Source: Chthoniobacterales bacterium (GTDB lineage Bacteria; Verrucomicrobiota; Verrucomicrobiia; Chthoniobacterales; JACTMZ01). From it: DNA of 64,000 bases. Position 1 is the stretch's first letter, and the number at the start of each line of letters is the position of its first letter. The position numbers were made by a program, and so were the translations under genes. A model generated the notes under the pieces. That model did not search any database and was not told the origin of the DNA. It saw nothing but the letters and a program-made list of their open reading frames with translations. The stretch lies in contig JBMOJP010000001.1 in NCBI GenBank assembly GCA_049315725.1, positions 27,690 to 91,689 on the forward strand, written 5' to 3'. Below are positions 3,015 to 58,480 of this stretch, piece after piece.

Positions 3015-4091
3015 TTAGAGATACATCCAGAGCTGGACTCCGAGCGCGGCGAGAGCAACGACAGTTGCCGCAATGGCCAGCAGGCCGGTGAGCTGGTCGG
3101 GAGCTGCTTCGGTCGCATCCTCCGCAGTCGCGGCTGGCTTGATCGTTGCCGCAGGTTTGGCTGCGGGGGCCGACGAGCCAATTTTGACCGTGGCCTGAGG
3201 GGCTGGACGGCTCGGTGGCGTGACGGTGACTTTGGAAGTTTCTTTTTTCGCCGCATCGCCGGGGGCGGCGGGCTTGATCGCGGCTGGTGCTGCGGTGGCC
3301 GGGCGCGGAGCACCGACTGGGGCCGGCACGGCCGGGGCTGCCGGATTCTCCGCGGCAACAGGCTTGGGTCCGGGCGCGGCCGGAGCGGTGGGCGCTCCTC
3401 CGGCAGGCATGGGAGGCTTTGGTGCCATGGGGGCCGGGATTGCTGCGCCGGCAGGCGGCAAGGGAGGCTTTGGCGCCATGGGGGCCGGGGCTGCTGCGCC
3501 GGCAGGCATGGGAGGTTTGGGCGGCATGGGGGCCGAGGTTGCTGCGCCGGCAGGCAAGGGAGGCTTTGGCGGCATGGGGGCCGGGGCTGCTCCGCCCGCA
3601 GGCATGGGAGGTTTGGGAGCCATGGGCGCTCCGGGTGCAGCTGCCACCGGTGGTTTCGGAGCAAACGGGGCGGCTGGTGGTGCGCCCACAGGGACGGGAG
3701 GCTTGGGAGCCATGGTGGTGCCAGGCACGGCGGTTTTGGGCGCCATCGCGACCGGCGCGGCAGGTGCCGGGACGGCGGGGCGGGGTGCCATGGGCGCGGC
3801 GCTCGGCACGGCCAACTTTGGTGCCATGGGTGCAGCGCCGCGGGCCGCAGGAATACCCGGTGGCTTGGGGGCCAGACTCGGGGCGGGCGCTGACGGCACG
3901 GCCATGCCTGGGGATGTTGGCATCACGGGCTTCGGCGGTGGTGGCATGCTGGTCGGCGCGACCGCGGCTGTCGGCAAAGGCTTGGGCGGGAGATTGATCA
4001 TCGCCGCCTCGCGGGGATTGGCCGCGCCGGGTTTCCCGTCGCGTTGCGGTGGGAGGACGATGCGGACAGTTTCTTTCTTTGGTTCGTTCAT
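3015..4091 (-). CDS. Pro/Ala-rich repeat protein with a C-terminal transmembrane anchor
   Basis: 358-aa ORF. The N-terminus is MNEPKKETVRIVLPP with no signal peptide. About 300 aa are P/A/K/M-rich with APKPP motifs. The only hydrophobic helix is at the C-terminus (LTGLLAIAATVVALAALGVQLWMYL). The boundaries are tidy, ending 36 nt upstream of trxA. Confidence 0.65.
   Translation of the reverse strand: MNEPKKETVRIVLPPQRDGKPGAANPREAAMINLPPKPLPTAAVAPTSMPPPPKPVMPTSPGMAVPSAPAPSLAPKPPGIPAARGAAPMAPKLAVPSAAPMAPRPAVPAPAAPVAMAPKTAVPGTTMAPKPPVPVGAPPAAPFAPKPPVAAAPGAPMAPKPPMPAGGAAPAPMPPKPPLPAGAATSAPMPPKPPMPAGAAAPAPMAPKPPLPPAGAAIPAPMAPKPPMPAGGAPTAPAAPGPKPVAAENPAAPAVPAPVGAPRPATAAPAAIKPAAPGDAAKKETSKVTVTPPSRPAPQATVKIGSSAPAAKPAATIKPAATAEDATEAAPDQLTGLLAIAATVVALAALGVQLWMYL
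3387..3629 (-). repeat. five tandem in-frame repeats of 48 nt (one copy 51 nt), encoding the unit APM(A/P)PKPP(M/L)PAG(G/A)A(A/T)(P/S)
   Basis: Direct reading of consecutive units, e.g. ggcaggcatgggaggctttggtgccatgggggccgggattgctgcgcc. They correspond to aa 155-235 of the 3015..4091 protein. Confidence 0.85.
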
Positions 4092-54203: not shown

Positions 54204-54977
54204 ATGGCCATCCGACTGCTCAGCACCGACTTCGATGGAACGCTCATCGGCCATCATCCCGATGCCCGCACGGCCGCCTCCCTCGGCACGGCCCTCAAGG
54301 ATTTGCGAAAGCATGGGGCCATCTGGGCGGTCAACACGGGGCGTCAACTTTGGTTTGCTCTTGAGGGACTCGAGCGATCCCACCTGCCGCACGATCCGGA
54401 TTATGTTCTGGCCAGCGAGAAGGATATTTTTCACCGCGTAGAGGAGGGGAGCTGGGAGGCCTTCGGCGATTGGAATGCTCGCATAGAGGAACGCACCGTG
54501 GCCCTCTTCGGGCGGGCTGGCCATGTGCTCACCGCGATCGAGAACATGGTGGAGAGGGAGGATGGTATCGAGGTCCTTTACGAGGACACCCGCATGACCG
54601 GGTTGATGACAGCGGACACCGCGACGATGGACCGTGCGGTCGAGATGATCCGCGCCGTCTCCTCGGACGTGCCTGAATTTTCCTTCAATCGCAACGATGT
54701 GTGGATGCGGTTCGCCCATCGCGAGATTCACAAGGGATCATCCCTTGGGGAGTTGGCCCGTTTGCTCGGGATTGACCGACGGGAGGTGCTGGCCGTGGGT
54801 GATCACCACAATGACATTCCGATGTTGGACGGCTCAGCCGCCGGAATGGTGGCCTGCCCGTCGAATGCCGTCGAGGAGGTCAAGCGCGTGGTGCGGGCCG
54901 CCGGCGGCTATGTCAGCCCGCATCCCTGGGGCGAGGGGGTGGCGGATGCGATTCGCCACTTTGCTTCGATCAGTTGA
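54204..54977 (+). CDS. HAD-superfamily (Cof-like, IIB) phosphatase
   Basis: LLSTDFDGTLIG (DxDGT) and AVGDHHNDIPML motifs. Confidence 0.8.
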   Translation: MAIRLLSTDFDGTLIGHHPDARTAASLGTALKDLRKHGAIWAVNTGRQLWFALEGLERSHLPHDPDYVLASEKDIFHRVEEGSWEAFGDWNARIEERTVALFGRAGHVLTAIENMVEREDGIEVLYEDTRMTGLMTADTATMDRAVEMIRAVSSDVPEFSFNRNDVWMRFAHREIHKGSSLGELARLLGIDRREVLAVGDHHNDIPMLDGSAAGMVACPSNAVEEVKRVVRAAGGYVSPHPWGEGVADAIRHFASIS

Positions 54978-56091
54978 TCAGGCCCCAGCGCCCAAGGAAG
55001 GGCCAGTAGACCACGAGGCCGCGCCCGACCACGTTCTCGGCCGGGACCGGTCCGAAATAGCGGCTGTCACTGCTGTTGTAACTGTTGTCGCCGAGGGCAA
55101 AGTAGGCGTGCGGCGGGACGGTGAATGTCTCATCGGGTGAGCCGAGCATGGGGAAAGCCCCGCCGCCCGCACTGGCGTTAGAATAACCCTCGTAGCCGTC
55201 CCGGGCGGCCATGACCCGACGAAAGGGCGGCTGCGTGGGTATCTCTCCGTCGATGTAGAGGTTCGGCGGGCCGATGCGGAGGGTCTGTCCGCTCAGGGCG
55301 GCCAGTCTCTTGATGTAGTATTGCGAGCCCATGCCCGGTGCGATGCTGGCTTCGATCCGGCGAATGCCCGTGGTGCGGAAGACGAAGACATCCGCCGCGG
55401 CGGGCCGGACAAAATTGTAACTTACTTTGTCCACGAAAAGCTGGTCGCCTGAATCCGCGTGACCCCGCACGATGGGTTGGCCGGCATGCAGCTGGCGGCC
55501 GGGGGCAATCTTGAAGTCGCGCCGGACGACGTCCAGCGGCGCGGGGACGCGGTAGGTGCGGCTGCGCGTAATGATCTCCGTCGAGGTGAAGAAATGGAAC
55601 TGGGAGATTTCGCGCAGCCCGATAATGGCGTCATCCTCCTGCGCGGTGACGTCGATGTAGGTCCGGCCGCGCAGGATGAATTCAGCCGCCTGCCGTGGCC
55701 ACGAGGGCGGCGGATCGACCGTCGGGGTTCCCGTCACGCCGTAGAGCGTCGGCTGCATCGAGCCCGTCGGGATTTTGAAGGGCTGCAGGAAATAGGCGCG
55801 GACCCCGAGGGCAATGACGAGGGCGACAAGGATAACCTCGGTGTTTTCGCGCAACCCGGCCAGGTTCGGTCGCGGCGCCGCCTGGTCGAAAAGGTCGTGC
55901 AGCTTCCGCGTCGATTGCTCGATGTCCTCGCGCGAAAGCATGCGGAGGGCGACCTCCAGGCGGGTGATGCCTTCGCGCAGTCCGATGATTTGCTTCTCCG
56001 GCAACACATCACTGCGGTAGCGGAGGAGCTTGCGGGCCGCCCGCAGGACCAACTTGGCTTCCTTGCGGTGGCGGGAGGTGAGAAAAAACAT
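54970..56091 (-). CDS. lepB: signal peptidase I with a long cytoplasmic N-terminal extension
   Basis: IPTGSMQPTLYG (catalytic Ser), YIKRL and FALGDNSYNSSDSRYFGPVP boxes. ATG 56091 is chosen (MFFLTSRHRK). Confidence 0.88.
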   Translation of the reverse strand: MFFLTSRHRKEAKLVLRAARKLLRYRSDVLPEKQIIGLREGITRLEVALRMLSREDIEQSTRKLHDLFDQAAPRPNLAGLRENTEVILVALVIALGVRAYFLQPFKIPTGSMQPTLYGVTGTPTVDPPPSWPRQAAEFILRGRTYIDVTAQEDDAIIGLREISQFHFFTSTEIITRSRTYRVPAPLDVVRRDFKIAPGRQLHAGQPIVRGHADSGDQLFVDKVSYNFVRPAAADVFVFRTTGIRRIEASIAPGMGSQYYIKRLAALSGQTLRIGPPNLYIDGEIPTQPPFRRVMAARDGYEGYSNASAGGGAFPMLGSPDETFTVPPHAYFALGDNSYNSSDSRYFGPVPAENVVGRGLVVYWPFLGRWGLIN

Positions 56092-56149
56092 AAGGAACAG
56101 TAACGGTGGCCAGTCTCTCTGCCGCGGACAAAAAGGCAATCCCGCGCCG

Positions 56150-56377
56150 TCAGACCATTTCGTCCGGCTCGAGGCGCGCGCGGTCGAGCAAGGCAGAGGC
56201 TTCGTCAATCGTCCCGAGCGCGGATGAGATTTCGTCAAGCGCGGCGGATACAGGCGACAAGCCCGAGCGGGGCAAATCCTGCAAGGCCAACTGGGCGCCC
56301 TGCAGGGCGTTGCGGGCCTGTTGCAGGGAGCGGTCGGCTGCGCGGAGGCGCTTGGCCCGCGGGTCAAGGGAGTTCAC
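56150..56377 (-). CDS. hypothetical 75-aa helical protein, GTGA-coupled to the upstream Cys-rich peptide gene
   Basis: GTG 56377 overlaps the TGA of the peptide ORF. VNSLDPRAKRLRAADRSLQQARNALQGAQLALQDL...IDEASALLDRARLEPDEMV. There is no family recognition, and in this GC-rich DNA the frame could be fortuitous. Confidence 0.3.
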   Translation of the reverse strand: MNSLDPRAKRLRAADRSLQQARNALQGAQLALQDLPRSGLSPVSAALDEISSALGTIDEASALLDRARLEPDEMV

Positions 56378-56508
56378 CCGTCGGCTTTTTTCTGCGGGCA
56401 GCCGCAATTCTCGGAGCACTTCTTTTTGCAGCCGCAATCTTTGCAGGCCGCCTGCGCGTAGCTGGTGCCGAGAGAGAAGGCGACGAGGAGGGTGAGGAGG
56501 ATTCGCAT
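56374..56508 (-). CDS. 44-aa secreted Cys-rich peptide precursor (not in the ORF track)
   Basis: Hand-translated: MRILLTLLVAFSLGTSYAQA|ACKDCGCKKKCSENCGCPQKKADG. It has a canonical n-h-c signal peptide with an AQA cleavage site, and the mature 24-mer carries 6 Cys. A GGTGAG purine tract lies 4 nt upstream of the ATG, and the gene sits just downstream of the OMP gene terminator. Confidence 0.55.
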   Translation of the reverse strand: MRILLTLLVAFSLGTSYAQAACKDCGCKKKCSENCGCPQKKADG

Positions 56509-56560
56509 AGTCTCACCCTATCGCAGATTATGACGGTTGCAAAGCAGAGGTCAGGCGCAC

Positions 56561-56595
56561 AAAAAAAAACGGCGCCGGATTGCTCCGGCGCCGTT
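56561..56595 (-). terminator. rho-independent terminator of the OM beta-barrel gene
   Basis: Minus strand: ACGGCGCCGG-AGCAAT-CCGGCGCCGT followed by T9. Confidence 0.8.
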
Positions 56596-56619: not shown

Positions 56620-57324
56620 TTAGAACGCGAAGCGCAGGCCATAGCGCCACATGAGCTGGTTGTTGGCCAAGCCATCAACACCGCTGAACATGTAACGGGC
56701 GTCGCTGAAGACACCGATATTCTTGGTCACGCGATACTCGAGACCGCCGCCGACATGGCCGAAGCCCTGACCAGCCATGCGGTAACGAGTGCCTGCTGTG
56801 GCAGGACGCCCATTGATCGCCGGGGTGGCCGGAGTAAGTTGCAGGTTGGGCACGTTGCCGTAGTTGGCGCCGCCACCGACCATGATGTAGGGGGCGAGGT
56901 TCCATTGGCAGATCGGGTAACGCAGGAAGAGGTTACCGATCGTGGCCCAACGGGTGTAGCCATAATTGCCTAGGTCGTAATTGCGGGCCTGGGCTGCTGT
57001 GGTGGGTGTCTTCTGCACGGACTCGCGACCGTAGAGGTCCTGCTCGATGCCGACGCCGACATACTTCATGAAGAAGTAGTTGAGGCCGACGCCGCCGCCC
57101 CAAGCGGGACGACCGGAGAACGAGCGCACAGAGGTTCCACCAAATTGGTCGCTGGCACCTTTGTAGAACTGTCCGAGGCCGAACAGGTCGAGTTGGATTT
57201 CCTGATCGCGGAAGAGGCAAGGATCCTCAGGGACGATCACTTCTTTGACCACTTTGCTGGGGCCGGCGATGGCCGACGTCGCAGCAACGGCTGCCACAAG
57301 GCTGGTAACAATGTATTTTTTCAT
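56620..57324 (-). CDS. outer-membrane beta-barrel protein (OmpA-like barrel / porin family)
   Basis: Signal peptide MKKYIVTSLVAAVAATSAIA, alternating aromatic/Gly beta-strand pattern, C-terminal ...WRYGLRFAF. Confidence 0.75.
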   Translation of the reverse strand: MKKYIVTSLVAAVAATSAIAGPSKVVKEVIVPEDPCLFRDQEIQLDLFGLGQFYKGASDQFGGTSVRSFSGRPAWGGGVGLNYFFMKYVGVGIEQDLYGRESVQKTPTTAAQARNYDLGNYGYTRWATIGNLFLRYPICQWNLAPYIMVGGGANYGNVPNLQLTPATPAINGRPATAGTRYRMAGQGFGHVGGGLEYRVTKNIGVFSDARYMFSGVDGLANNQLMWRYGLRFAF

Positions 57325-57432
57325 GATTGGATTTTAGGTTTGTTTGCGTGCGAGGTTTGCCTCGCGATCGCTAGTTAGAACAATCGTTCAATCTTCGGCA
57401 AGAAGTTTTTTTCAAAAGATGACAGGTGCTTC

Positions 57433-58449
57433 TCAGTGGGGTCCGGACGAAGCCCGGCCTGACACGCGAAGGTCGGGGCCGATTCGTTGCCAGGTTGCAT
57501 CCGCAATTCTGATTGATCGGCTCGTTCCGCGACCAGCGATGGCAACAACCTTTCCGCCGGACAGCATCGGCGCAATGTAGAAGATGAACTCATTGACCAA
57601 TCGTGCGTCGAACAATTTTCCCAAAGTATGGCCCCCGCCTTCCACCAGCAGCGACTGCACGCCCCGCTGGCCCAGCGAGCGCAGGGCACTACGCAGAGTG
57701 CGGTGGGTGAGCACAAGGGTGCGGTCTTTTGCTTCGTCGTGAAAAAGCCGAGCCTTGGCCGGCGGTCTCCGTCGCGGAGCCCAGATAGCCCGCCATGGTT
57801 GCGCCGCCCCAGGCAGGCCCCGCACGGTCAGCGCCGGGTCGTCCGCCCGGACCGTGGCCGCACCAACAAGGATGGCATCCACCCGGCCGCGCAACTTCAT
57901 GGCATCGCGTCGCGCCGCCGGCGAGGTGATCCACTGCCCTTCGCCGGCAGGCCGGGTCAGGCGCCCGTCGAGAGACATCCCGCATTTGGCGATGACCCAC
58001 GGAAGGCCGGTTGACATGAAATGATGGAATTCCGGGTTCAGCGCCGCGCACTCTGCCGACAGCACTCCTGAGGTCACGCGGATGCCGGCGCGGCGCAGAA
58101 GGCGAAGGGCGCGGCCCCGGTGGGCTGGATTCGGGTCAATGGTGCCGATCACGACCCGGGAGATGCCAGCCTCGATCAAGGCAGTCACACAAGGCGGCGT
58201 GCGTCCGTGGGTCGAGCACGGCTCGAGGGTCACATAGGCCGTGGCGCCGCGGGCCAGCTTTGGTGTTTTGAGCGACCGCAGGGCCTCGATCTCAGCGTGG
58301 GGTGCGCCAGCCCGGCGGTGCCAGCCTCGGCCGATCACTTTACCCTGTCGGGTCAAAACACACCCGACGGCCGGGTTCGGTCGCGTCCGCCCCGCGCCTC
58401 GGGCGGCGAGTTGCAGCGCCTCGCGCATGAATTTTTCGTCGATCGACAT
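57433..58449 (-). CDS. ribD: bifunctional riboflavin biosynthesis protein RibD (deaminase/reductase)
   Basis: FMREALQLA...NPAVGCVL...HAEIEAL...TLEPCSTHGRTPPC deaminase, plus a C-terminal reductase domain; ATG 58449. Confidence 0.92.
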   Translation of the reverse strand: MSIDEKFMREALQLAARGAGRTRPNPAVGCVLTRQGKVIGRGWHRRAGAPHAEIEALRSLKTPKLARGATAYVTLEPCSTHGRTPPCVTALIEAGISRVVIGTIDPNPAHRGRALRLLRRAGIRVTSGVLSAECAALNPEFHHFMSTGLPWVIAKCGMSLDGRLTRPAGEGQWITSPAARRDAMKLRGRVDAILVGAATVRADDPALTVRGLPGAAQPWRAIWAPRRRPPAKARLFHDEAKDRTLVLTHRTLRSALRSLGQRGVQSLLVEGGGHTLGKLFDARLVNEFIFYIAPMLSGGKVVAIAGRGTSRSIRIADATWQRIGPDLRVSGRASSGPH

Positions 58450-58480
58450 GGCGGGGCAGCGCGGCACTAAGAGGGGAAAG

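Follow-up and report, generated by a model that had tools for sequence, protein, structure and literature searches.

A conserved gene pair of Chthoniobacterales encodes a predicted exported Cys-rich peptide, a candidate metallothionein-like metal binder, and a probably coupled partner protein

A stretch of 64,000 nucleotides from a Chthoniobacterales bacterium (assembly GCA_049315725.1, contig JBMOJP010000001.1, positions 27,690 to 91,689 of the forward strand; the whole of it is called the window below) was analysed with respect to a short gene on its minus strand, at 56374..56508, which encodes a Cys-rich precursor of 44 residues. There is hardly room for doubt that this is a real exported-peptide gene, export being assigned by sequence rule. 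Very probably it forms, with the partner gene directly downstream, a bicistronic, translationally coupled operon that has its own promoter of the sigma-70 type. The peptide family is real and conserved, and the searched literature has no description of it. The mature product could be a periplasmic metal-thiolate, metallothionein-like peptide; to judge from its sequence this is the best single guess, held with somewhat less than even confidence. The features of the gene pair are as follows.

56374..56508, minus strand: peptide gene, 44 codons plus TGA, precursor MRILLTLLVAFSLGTSYAQA up to the predicted cleavage site and ACKDCGCKKKCSENCGCPQKKADG after it.
56449..56508, minus strand: Sec-type signal peptide, residues 1-20, with predicted cleavage between AQA and A.
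56377..56448, minus strand: mature peptide, 24 residues, core C-x2-C-G-C-x3-C-x3-C-x-C plus a Lys-rich tail.
56374..56377, minus strand: GTGA overlap, in which the TGA of the peptide gene shares bases with the GTG start of the partner.
56150..56377, minus strand: partner gene, a conserved hypothetical protein of 75 residues without signal peptide and without Cys.

The open reading frame (ORF) reads ATG-MRILLTLLVAFSLGTSYAQAACKDCGCKKKCSENCGCPQKKADG-TGA, exactly as in a first-pass annotation made from the letters of the window, and it is a genuine gene. Loci of relatives were gathered through the partner-gene family, which gave 27 genome loci, all of them from metagenome-assembled genomes (MAGs) of Chthoniobacterales or other Verrucomicrobiota and none from isolates. 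With the window and locus L001 added, 29 loci were compared, and in 24 of them an ORF combining a signal peptide with the six-Cys framework lies directly upstream of the partner gene. Across these 24 loci the ratio of nonsynonymous to synonymous polymorphism (pN/pS) of the 17-codon Cys core is 0.27 in frame, against 1.35 and 1.03 in the shifted frames, and the entropy of third codon positions is 2-3 times that of positions 1 and 2. The reading frame of the peptide is under purifying selection, and the conservation of frame and Cys pattern in relatives, which had been proposed as a check on the gene, was borne out. A protein of 44 residues, 93% identical to the window peptide, comes from an unrelated assembly, and the nucleotide differences between the two copies are mostly synonymous. 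In the six-frame translation of the window the framework C-x2-C-x-C-x3-C-x3-C-x-C has a single occurrence, each related locus likewise has one, always at the peptide gene, and 60 simulated windows matched in second-order composition have none. A chance ORF was rejected on the same-position homologues, the low core pN/pS and the absence of the framework from simulated sequence.

The exact window peptide is held by NCBI as MFZ4482436.1 ('hypothetical protein ACOYOL_00470 [Chthoniobacterales bacterium]'). It is thus already annotated in public data, though uncharacterised, and the word 'unannotated' in the first-pass annotation has to be withdrawn. A profile of the locus peptides recovers 46 called clusters; all carry the name 'hypothetical protein', and a Pfam domain is present in none of them. 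When 1.84 billion representative proteins were scanned exhaustively with HMMER, only 6 representatives matched, so the family is small and restricted to one lineage, a single order. Within Chthoniobacterales the gene is vertically inherited. The window peptide matched no Pfam or NCBIfam model and no PADLOC or PHROG model, and profile searches of PDB, Pfam, NCBIfam, PADLOC and PHROGs returned nothing specific for the pair. No relevant account of the peptide motif, of Verrucomicrobia metallothioneins or of exported bacterial metallothioneins was present in the searched literature.

Metagenome DNA was also scanned with the back-translated Cys framework. The pattern is satisfied by TGC/GC simple repeats, none of the 80 loci listed from the scan is a family member, and the scan is uninformative on the breadth of the family; a pattern specific to the family is TGYAARGAYTGYGGNTGYAAR. 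Six metagenome contigs (L066, L032, L067, L085, L037 and L040) carry short, non-repetitive Cys-rich ORFs without signal peptide that start C-x-[K/R/E]-C-G-C, for example MVKCEKCGCDCDCKDNCQCTNCECKKEEK. Their resemblance to the peptide arises by construction, as they were chosen by the search pattern, and they have no significant Pfam match; they may be cytosolic metallothionein-like peptides.

The Sec signal peptide with an A-x-A site that had been read in the first 20 residues is in place, with n-, h- and c-regions laid out in order. Precursors of the family are 44-50 residues long. Among 61 of them, Ala stands at -1 in all (61/61) and A, V, T or L at -3; the n-region is M-[KR], and the uncharged run of the h-region averages 14 residues with a minimum of 11. 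The signal-peptide region has a pN/pS of 0.75, its sequence varying with hydrophobicity kept, and this value is typical of relaxed signal-peptide evolution. The n/h/c layout and A-x-A site are those of a Sec and signal peptidase I substrate, by sequence rule only. A signal peptidase II lipobox, [LVI]-[ASTVI]-[GAS]-C, is ruled out because Gln usually precedes the first Cys (about 50 of the 61 precursors; the window reads A-Q-A-A-C, with Gln at -3 relative to that Cys), and the LPAM_1 model matched weakly in only 2 of 41 members (E = 0.06). A lipoprotein was rejected on that usual Gln and on the lack of a lipobox.

A chain of 44 residues is still almost wholly within the ribosome tunnel at termination. 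The precursor would therefore be exported through Sec post-translationally, being too short to emerge before termination. Signal peptidase I would cut after A-x-A and free a peptide of 24-28 residues into the periplasm. The new N-terminus is Gln in most members and would be prone to pyroglutamate (pyroGlu) formation; in the pyroGlu form the family-consensus 26-mer would be pyroGlu-CKDCGCKEKCSPTCQCKHDEKPKAQ.

In the window the mature peptide has 6 Cys and 6 Lys in its 24 residues, as had been counted before. The two near-repeats described at that time, CxxCGC and CxxxCGC, hold for the window peptide but not for the family, in which the second motif is CxC. The consensus of the mature family is QCKDCGCKxKCSPTCxCKHDEKPKAQ, and its signature is [Q/A]-C-K-D-C-G-C-K-x-K-C-x3-C-x-C followed by a tail rich in K, P and E; the spacings amount to C-x2-C, two C-x-C and two C-x3-C. 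Residues C25, G26, C27, C31 and C37 are invariant, and C22, K23, D24, K30 and C35 are kept in more than 90%. Mature lengths run from 24 to 28 residues, almost all being 24 or 26, and the C-terminal tails are variable (ADG, SDA, KAP, KAQ, PQ, TTR). The 60 distinct mature peptides consist of 23.4% Cys, 20.9% Lys and 0.66% LIVMFWY, with a mean net charge of +2.4. All six Cys are kept in 56 of the 60. The other four sequences each lack exactly one (C1 to G, C1 to R, C2 to R, C5 to Y), and the C5-to-Y variant is present on 14 contigs. His occurs in 41 of the 60 and often adjoins the last Cys. In the AlphaFold2 model the mature part is unstructured, with a predicted local distance difference test score (pLDDT) of about 62-67 and a mean of 64.5.

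The six Cys, held within 16 residues (C-x2-C, C-x-C, C-x3-C, C-x3-C, C-x-C), would make a metallothionein-like set of thiolate ligands, and the conserved Lys around them could balance the negative charge that such a metal-thiolate cluster would carry. Once in the periplasm, the peptide would fold around soft metals, such as a pair of Zn(II)/Cd(II) ions or a small cluster of Cu(I), and may serve as a metal buffer, store or chaperone. This reading is favoured because of the composition and Cys spacing, the flanking Lys, the tolerance of single Cys losses and the lack of a predicted fold. The descriptive features of metallothioneins, namely low mass, about 15-30% Cys, C-x-C and C-x-x-C motifs and few aromatics, are all found in the peptide. 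The Lys between and around the Cys are nearly invariant (K23, K30), as are D24 and G26, which speaks for a metallothionein-like peptide. Single unpaired Cys losses are easier for a thiolate cluster than for a three-disulfide fold. A low pLDDT would be expected of a peptide that folds only around metal; it is also common in tiny disulfide peptides.

Several points weigh against a metal-thiolate peptide. The metallothionein Pfam families (PF02069, PF00131, PF12749, PF12809 and others) gave no match at gathering score. Two sporadic sub-threshold matches were seen, one of 41 precursors against PF12809 (E = 0.0013) and one of 10 mature peptides against PF12749 (12 bits against a cut-off of 22); that such matches are to metallothionein Pfam models only counts in favour of the metallothionein-like reading. 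Known bacterial metallothioneins, such as SmtA and MymT, are cytosolic (PMC7558416). The periplasm of an aerobe is oxidising, so that six exported Cys become disulfides by default. The subclade to which the window belongs is without His. The peptide was lost in 5 of the 29 loci and is thus dispensable in some lineages. None of 28 loci links the pair to a metal transporter, a metal sensor or an operator responsive to metal, and the role of the partner is not explained by the metal-thiolate model.

The main rival, possible but on the unlikely side, takes the peptide for a disulfide-locked secreted mini-protein. Oxidation of the DsbA type would close three disulfides and yield a rigid, cationic, protease-resistant (pyroGlu) molecule without metal, which would bind a target as a signal, as an enzyme or protease inhibitor or as an envelope factor. 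Six-Cys secreted peptides of 20-30 residues in eukaryotes and bacteria, such as STa, conotoxins and defensins, are nearly always disulfide-bonded. An even number of Cys, six, is kept in 56 of the 60 distinct peptides; the signal peptide points to export into an oxidising compartment, the conserved K23, D24, G26 and K30 could form a binding surface, and the 28 loci have no metal genes nearby. Losses of a single, then unpaired, Cys in 4 of the 60, one of them in a widespread lineage, speak against three disulfides, and a hydrophobic and aromatic content of 0.66% would be unusual for a target-binding or membrane-active disulfide peptide. The housekeeping-level conservation and the stable single-copy synteny argue against a fast-evolving toxin or bacteriocin, and a linked receptor, transporter or immunity-type membrane protein was not found. 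A ferredoxin-like Fe-S motif was rejected on the wrong Cys spacing and on the Sec export of an unfolded chain.

The peptide was compared with known systems. Like metallothioneins (SmtA/BmtA of PF02069, MymT, the 25-residue Neurospora crassa Cu-metallothionein), it is tiny, contains about 25% Cys with C-x-C and C-x-x-C motifs, is rich in Lys and without aromatic or hydrophobic residues, and has no predicted fold without metal. The string 'DCGC' is also found in the N. crassa Cu-metallothionein. The Cys framework is different, sequence homology is absent and a partner gene is coupled to it, and metal binding is here proposed from the sequence. MerP and Csp1 are both exported and bind soft metals by Cys thiolates outside the cytoplasm, and chemistry of this kind is thus feasible in the periplasm. 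MerP, a further precedent for an exported Cys-based metal binder, is a Sec-exported periplasmic Hg(II) binder of 72 residues with a ferredoxin-like fold and a single CxxC, encoded in mer operons, whereas the peptide is without metal-operon context. Csp1, the other precedent for such a binder, is a Tat-exported copper storage protein, pre-folded as a four-helix bundle of about 120 residues, as against 24-28 residues and no fold in the peptide (PMC7558416). The cleavable Sec signal also separates the peptide from the known bacterial metallothioneins, which are cytosolic (PMC7558416). As read from its sequence, the family is a small exported Cys-rich peptide of metallothionein-like make-up that fails every metallothionein sequence-family test and lies in a distinctive conserved operon.

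STa-type peptides share with it the Sec signal peptide, the small mature product and six Cys in fewer than 20 residues. STa, however, is made with a pro-region, contains hydrophobic residues, follows the framework CC-x2-CC-x3-C-x2-C and is plasmid- or transposon-borne in enterobacteria, whereas the peptide is fully hydrophilic, has another framework and is encoded by a chromosomal, syntenic gene. The size of the precursor and its 'six Cys in about 45 residues' recall SCIFF (TIGR03973); in both, a precursor of some 45 residues carries its six Cys in the C-terminal half. A ribosomally synthesized and post-translationally modified peptide (RiPP) of the SCIFF or ranthipeptide kind would have its N-terminal half as leader and its Cys-rich half modified by enzymes encoded elsewhere; the C-x3-C spacing with Ser and Thr between the Cys would suit such modification. 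SCIFF, however, has no signal peptide, always lies beside its radical-SAM maturase and belongs to Clostridia. Here the N-terminal half has the canonical form of a cleavable Sec signal and not that of a RiPP leader, the conserved neighbours in 28 loci include no radical-SAM enzyme or other maturase, and NCBIfam gave no match to TIGR03973 or to another RiPP family. A RiPP precursor is accordingly regarded as very improbable.

The lepB gene had been placed about 280 nt downstream of the peptide gene. The distance to its ATG at 56091 is indeed 282 nt, but the interval is occupied by the conserved 75-residue partner gene. The stop codon of the peptide gene overlaps the start codon of the partner as RTGA in all 24 peptide-bearing loci, so that the sequence has the conserved overlap expected of a translationally coupled bicistronic operon. 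The partner starts with GTG or TTG in 20 of these 24 loci, as against ATG in 5 of the 5 peptide-less loci (Fisher p = 0.001, without correction for phylogeny). Because of the stop/start overlap and of a weak GTG/TTG start found only alongside the peptide, translation of the partner, which usually starts with GTG, is probably coupled to that of the peptide. A purine-rich tail lies directly upstream of the partner start. Peptide and partner very probably make up a two-gene unit, with the peptide gene in front and a promoter that serves this unit alone.

The 46 clusters of partner homologues are 59-87% identical. The partner has a pN/pS of 0.36 and is under purifying selection, and its N-terminal 37 residues are near-invariant across the order. 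AlphaFold2 models it as a two-helix hairpin (helices 6-32 and 42-69, pLDDT 88), and it is predicted to be a soluble cytoplasmic hairpin without membrane segment. Sequence and structure searches for relatives of the partner gave no meaningful match. Foldseek against PDB returned only generic coiled-coil hairpins (best E = 0.64), and the best PADLOC/PHROG result was a coiled-coil tape-measure protein with an E-value of 0.18, which does not place the partner in that class. Tat export of the partner was rejected, there being no twin-arginine motif and no h-region.

Public calls of the partner often have the wrong start. At least 80 residues are given to 25 of the 46 partner calls, against a true length of 72-76, the extension being upstream, and most of the over-extended calls (92-101 residues) span the peptide ORF in another frame. 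The counterpart in the window is a 95-residue ORF starting with TTG (56150..56437, minus strand). The false N-termini of P0004, P0007, P0009, P0033 and others, for example 'MQRLRLQSQVLGNLPVP', are the CGC-rich core read out of frame. The forecast that gene callers would miss the peptide therefore fails for the 46 peptide clusters that have been called, and retains some truth in that about half of the partner calls are over-extended, most of them across the peptide ORF. A different case is P0051 (79 residues; NCBI/JGI), in which the intact peptide, through C-K-C-P, is fused in frame to the C-terminal half of the partner; the fusion reflects either a genuine deletion or an error of assembly.

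The partner is present without the peptide in 5 loci. In two of the peptide-less loci, L012 and L022, the stop codon of the upstream gene overlaps the ATG of the partner instead. L008 still has a decayed relic of the gene, MKIIFLSPLDRHLSVRHRHPAGRCCRDQTR, at 3866-3958 between XdhC and the partner; it is 93 nt long as against about 135, is without the Cys framework and suggests a recent loss of the peptide in that lineage. In L005 (5855-5866) ATA stands where the ATG is expected, and the sole in-frame ATG is inside the predicted -10 box (TAAAATG); the ATA is perhaps an error of sequencing, perhaps an unusual start codon.

Taken mainly as a regulatory upstream ORF, the peptide gene would encode a substrate that monitors secretion or LepB, or would be a coupling ORF whose translation governs how strongly the partner (and lepB where present) is expressed, its product being unimportant. 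SecM, VemP and MifM are signal-peptide ORFs upstream of secretion genes; like the peptide gene they are small, encode an export signal at the N-terminus and are tied by translation to the genes that follow, lepB being one of these in some genomes here. The 4-nt overlap in 24 of 24 loci with a weak GTG/TTG partner start, the purine-rich tail just before that start, and the position of lepB downstream in 12 loci, with no terminator predicted between in the window, would all suit such a role. The product does matter, however, because the Cys core is under strong purifying selection (pN/pS 0.27, with invariant Cys, Gly and Lys). SecM, VemP and MifM have 95-170 residues and a conserved C-terminal arrest motif, whereas the peptide has a conserved Cys core, no conserved C-terminal arrest motif and variable tails; its 44-50 residues are about the length of the exit tunnel and too short for co-translational pulling. 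The signal peptide of a 44-residue chain is not exposed before termination, so export cannot relieve a stall. Moreover, lepB is not downstream in 16 of 28 loci, and in 5 loci, on our reading, the partner is expressed on its own. A regulatory upstream ORF is thus improbable, and the suggestion of the first-pass annotation that the peptide is a LepB substrate tuning lepB is unlikely, as the chain lies inside the tunnel and cannot report on export co-translationally as SecM, VemP and MifM do.

Two small, tightly coupled genes could also be a bacteriocin with its immunity protein, or a toxin with its antidote, the cationic peptide, exported by prediction, attacking competitors and the partner protecting the producer; partners that occur alone would then resemble 'orphan immunity' genes. 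The predicted partner is, however, a soluble cytoplasmic hairpin without membrane segment, and its near-invariant N-terminal 37 residues are unlike fast-evolving immunity proteins. The locus is single-copy at a fixed chromosomal position, there is no PADLOC/PHROG match and no linked ABC transporter for export or processing, and the peptide is without the hydrophobic residues for an attack on membranes. This reading is considered quite improbable.

The elements upstream of the pair are as follows.

56568..56595, minus strand: intrinsic terminator of the upstream outer-membrane protein (OMP) gene, a 12-bp GC-rich stem followed by a T run.
56527..56554, minus strand: promoter-like site CTGACC-16-CATAAT, a candidate specific to the window, with the -10 ending 18 nt before the ATG.
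56515..56543, minus strand: promoter at the family position, TTTGCA-17-TAGGGT, ending 6 nt before the ATG, score 7/12.

The OMP terminator, which the first-pass annotation had rightly located before the gene, marks the end of the upstream transcription unit. An Rfam scan gave only sub-threshold small-RNA matches, all of them on its hairpin. Between the terminator and the ATG one promoter-like site was found, against 0.1 expected in shuffles. It had been read as CTGACC-N18-TAATCT; the site exists, but the reading was 2 nt off. The prediction that the gene has its own promoter is supported by the relatives: a TTGCCA-17-TAnnnT box ending 5-8 nt before the start codon scores at least 8/12 in 17 of 24 loci, as against 0.8% of random positions, and TTTGCA-17-TAGGGT of the window is a weakened copy of it, the CATAAT further upstream being the better -10 box there. 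The weakening coincides with an upstream rearrangement, in which RibD and the OMP gene replace aminotransferase and XdhC. Transcription normally begins about 7 nt past the -10 box. With the -10 ending 5-8 nt before the start codon, this suggests that the mRNA of the peptide is leaderless or nearly so in most relatives. In L004, L009, L011, L014, L024 and L028, short GC-rich inverted repeats of differing sequence, seen by eye, lie on both sides of the conserved TTTGCCA box, roughly between -55 and -25 relative to the ATG; CCCGGC-atttgccaac-GCCGGG and AGGCCA-cgcgtttgcca-TGGCCT are two of them. Such repeats may arise by chance where DNA is rich in GC, or may be a hairpin of read-through transcripts or a site for a regulator.

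Downstream of the partner lies lepB:

54970..56091, minus strand: lepB, signal peptidase I, 373 residues (TIGR02227 at 5e-31, PF10502), 58 nt past the partner.

Its true start is the ATG at 56091, as in homologues and other assemblies; the 465-residue TTG ORF of the ORF list (54970..56367) starts inside the partner. The 58-nt spacer between partner and lepB (56092..56149, minus strand) folds to -17.1 kcal/mol with no T run after the stem, and no canonical terminator was predicted in it. In the window lepB may therefore be co-transcribed with the pair. The lepB gene and a convergent plus-strand gene for a 257-residue HAD hydrolase overlap by 8 nt at their 3' ends (54970..54977), an arrangement kept in relatives.

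Synteny was examined by tblastn, a greedy ORF-based version having been discarded as confounded by antisense ORFs in GC-rich DNA. The backbone in relatives is aminotransferase, XdhC, the peptide where present, and the partner. Three arrangements follow downstream: lepB, HAD, w133, deaminase, w653 and UvrA in 12 loci including the window; DeoC and 6PGD in 7; and 6PGD directly in 8. Of the 28 loci whose downstream sequence could be read, only 12 have lepB there, always with a further gene between the peptide and lepB; linkage to lepB is clade-specific and not the conserved feature that had been put forward for checking. The linked neighbours are aminotransferase, XdhC, lepB, DeoC, 6PGD and UvrA; redox, RiPP-maturase, transporter or defence genes were not linked in 28 loci. 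The peptide-partner pair is a fixed, vertically inherited, single-copy feature of the chromosome, and a mobile element or cassette was rejected on the fixed synteny. In the window (56620..58467, minus strand) RibD, followed by a gene for a 234-residue OMP beta-barrel, stands in place of the aminotransferase-XdhC of most relatives (L002 and others), and the order OMP, peptide, partner, lepB recurs in other samples. One 1.4-kb contig (L020, CAYWZI010000301.1), with XdhC, peptide, partner and 6PGD, is labelled an 'uncultured Microbacteriaceae' MAG; almost certainly it stems from a Chthoniobacterales genome and was binned wrongly.

The scope of these results is one order, with all 27 genome loci from MAGs and the function judged from composition only. 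Whatever that function, the pair offers a clean natural case of a very short (44-residue) predicted Sec substrate, with a conserved promoter of the leaderless type and obligatory stop/start coupling, and it exposes a systematic annotation error in partner starts (25 of 46 calls). A fuller proposal is that this is the first Sec-exported bacterial family of the metallothionein type: an unmodified metal-thiolate cluster of 24-28 residues, periplasmic or extracellular, with which freshwater and soil Verrucomicrobiota would buffer, store or scavenge (as with a metallophore) trace metals. Its mRNA would be leaderless and would also yield, co-translated in stoichiometric amount, a dedicated cytoplasmic hairpin protein that handles the very short precursor before its post-translational export. 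In all these particulars together the proposal is possible yet doubtful. Were the peptide to bind metal, metallothionein chemistry would reach into the bacterial cell envelope, and the peptide would be a minimal, genetically encoded soft-metal ligand of 24-28 residues, with a bearing on trace-metal ecology and on peptide design, from abundant but little-studied bacteria of lakes and soils. The chief importance of the peptide is as a candidate for the first exported metallothionein-like peptide in bacteria.

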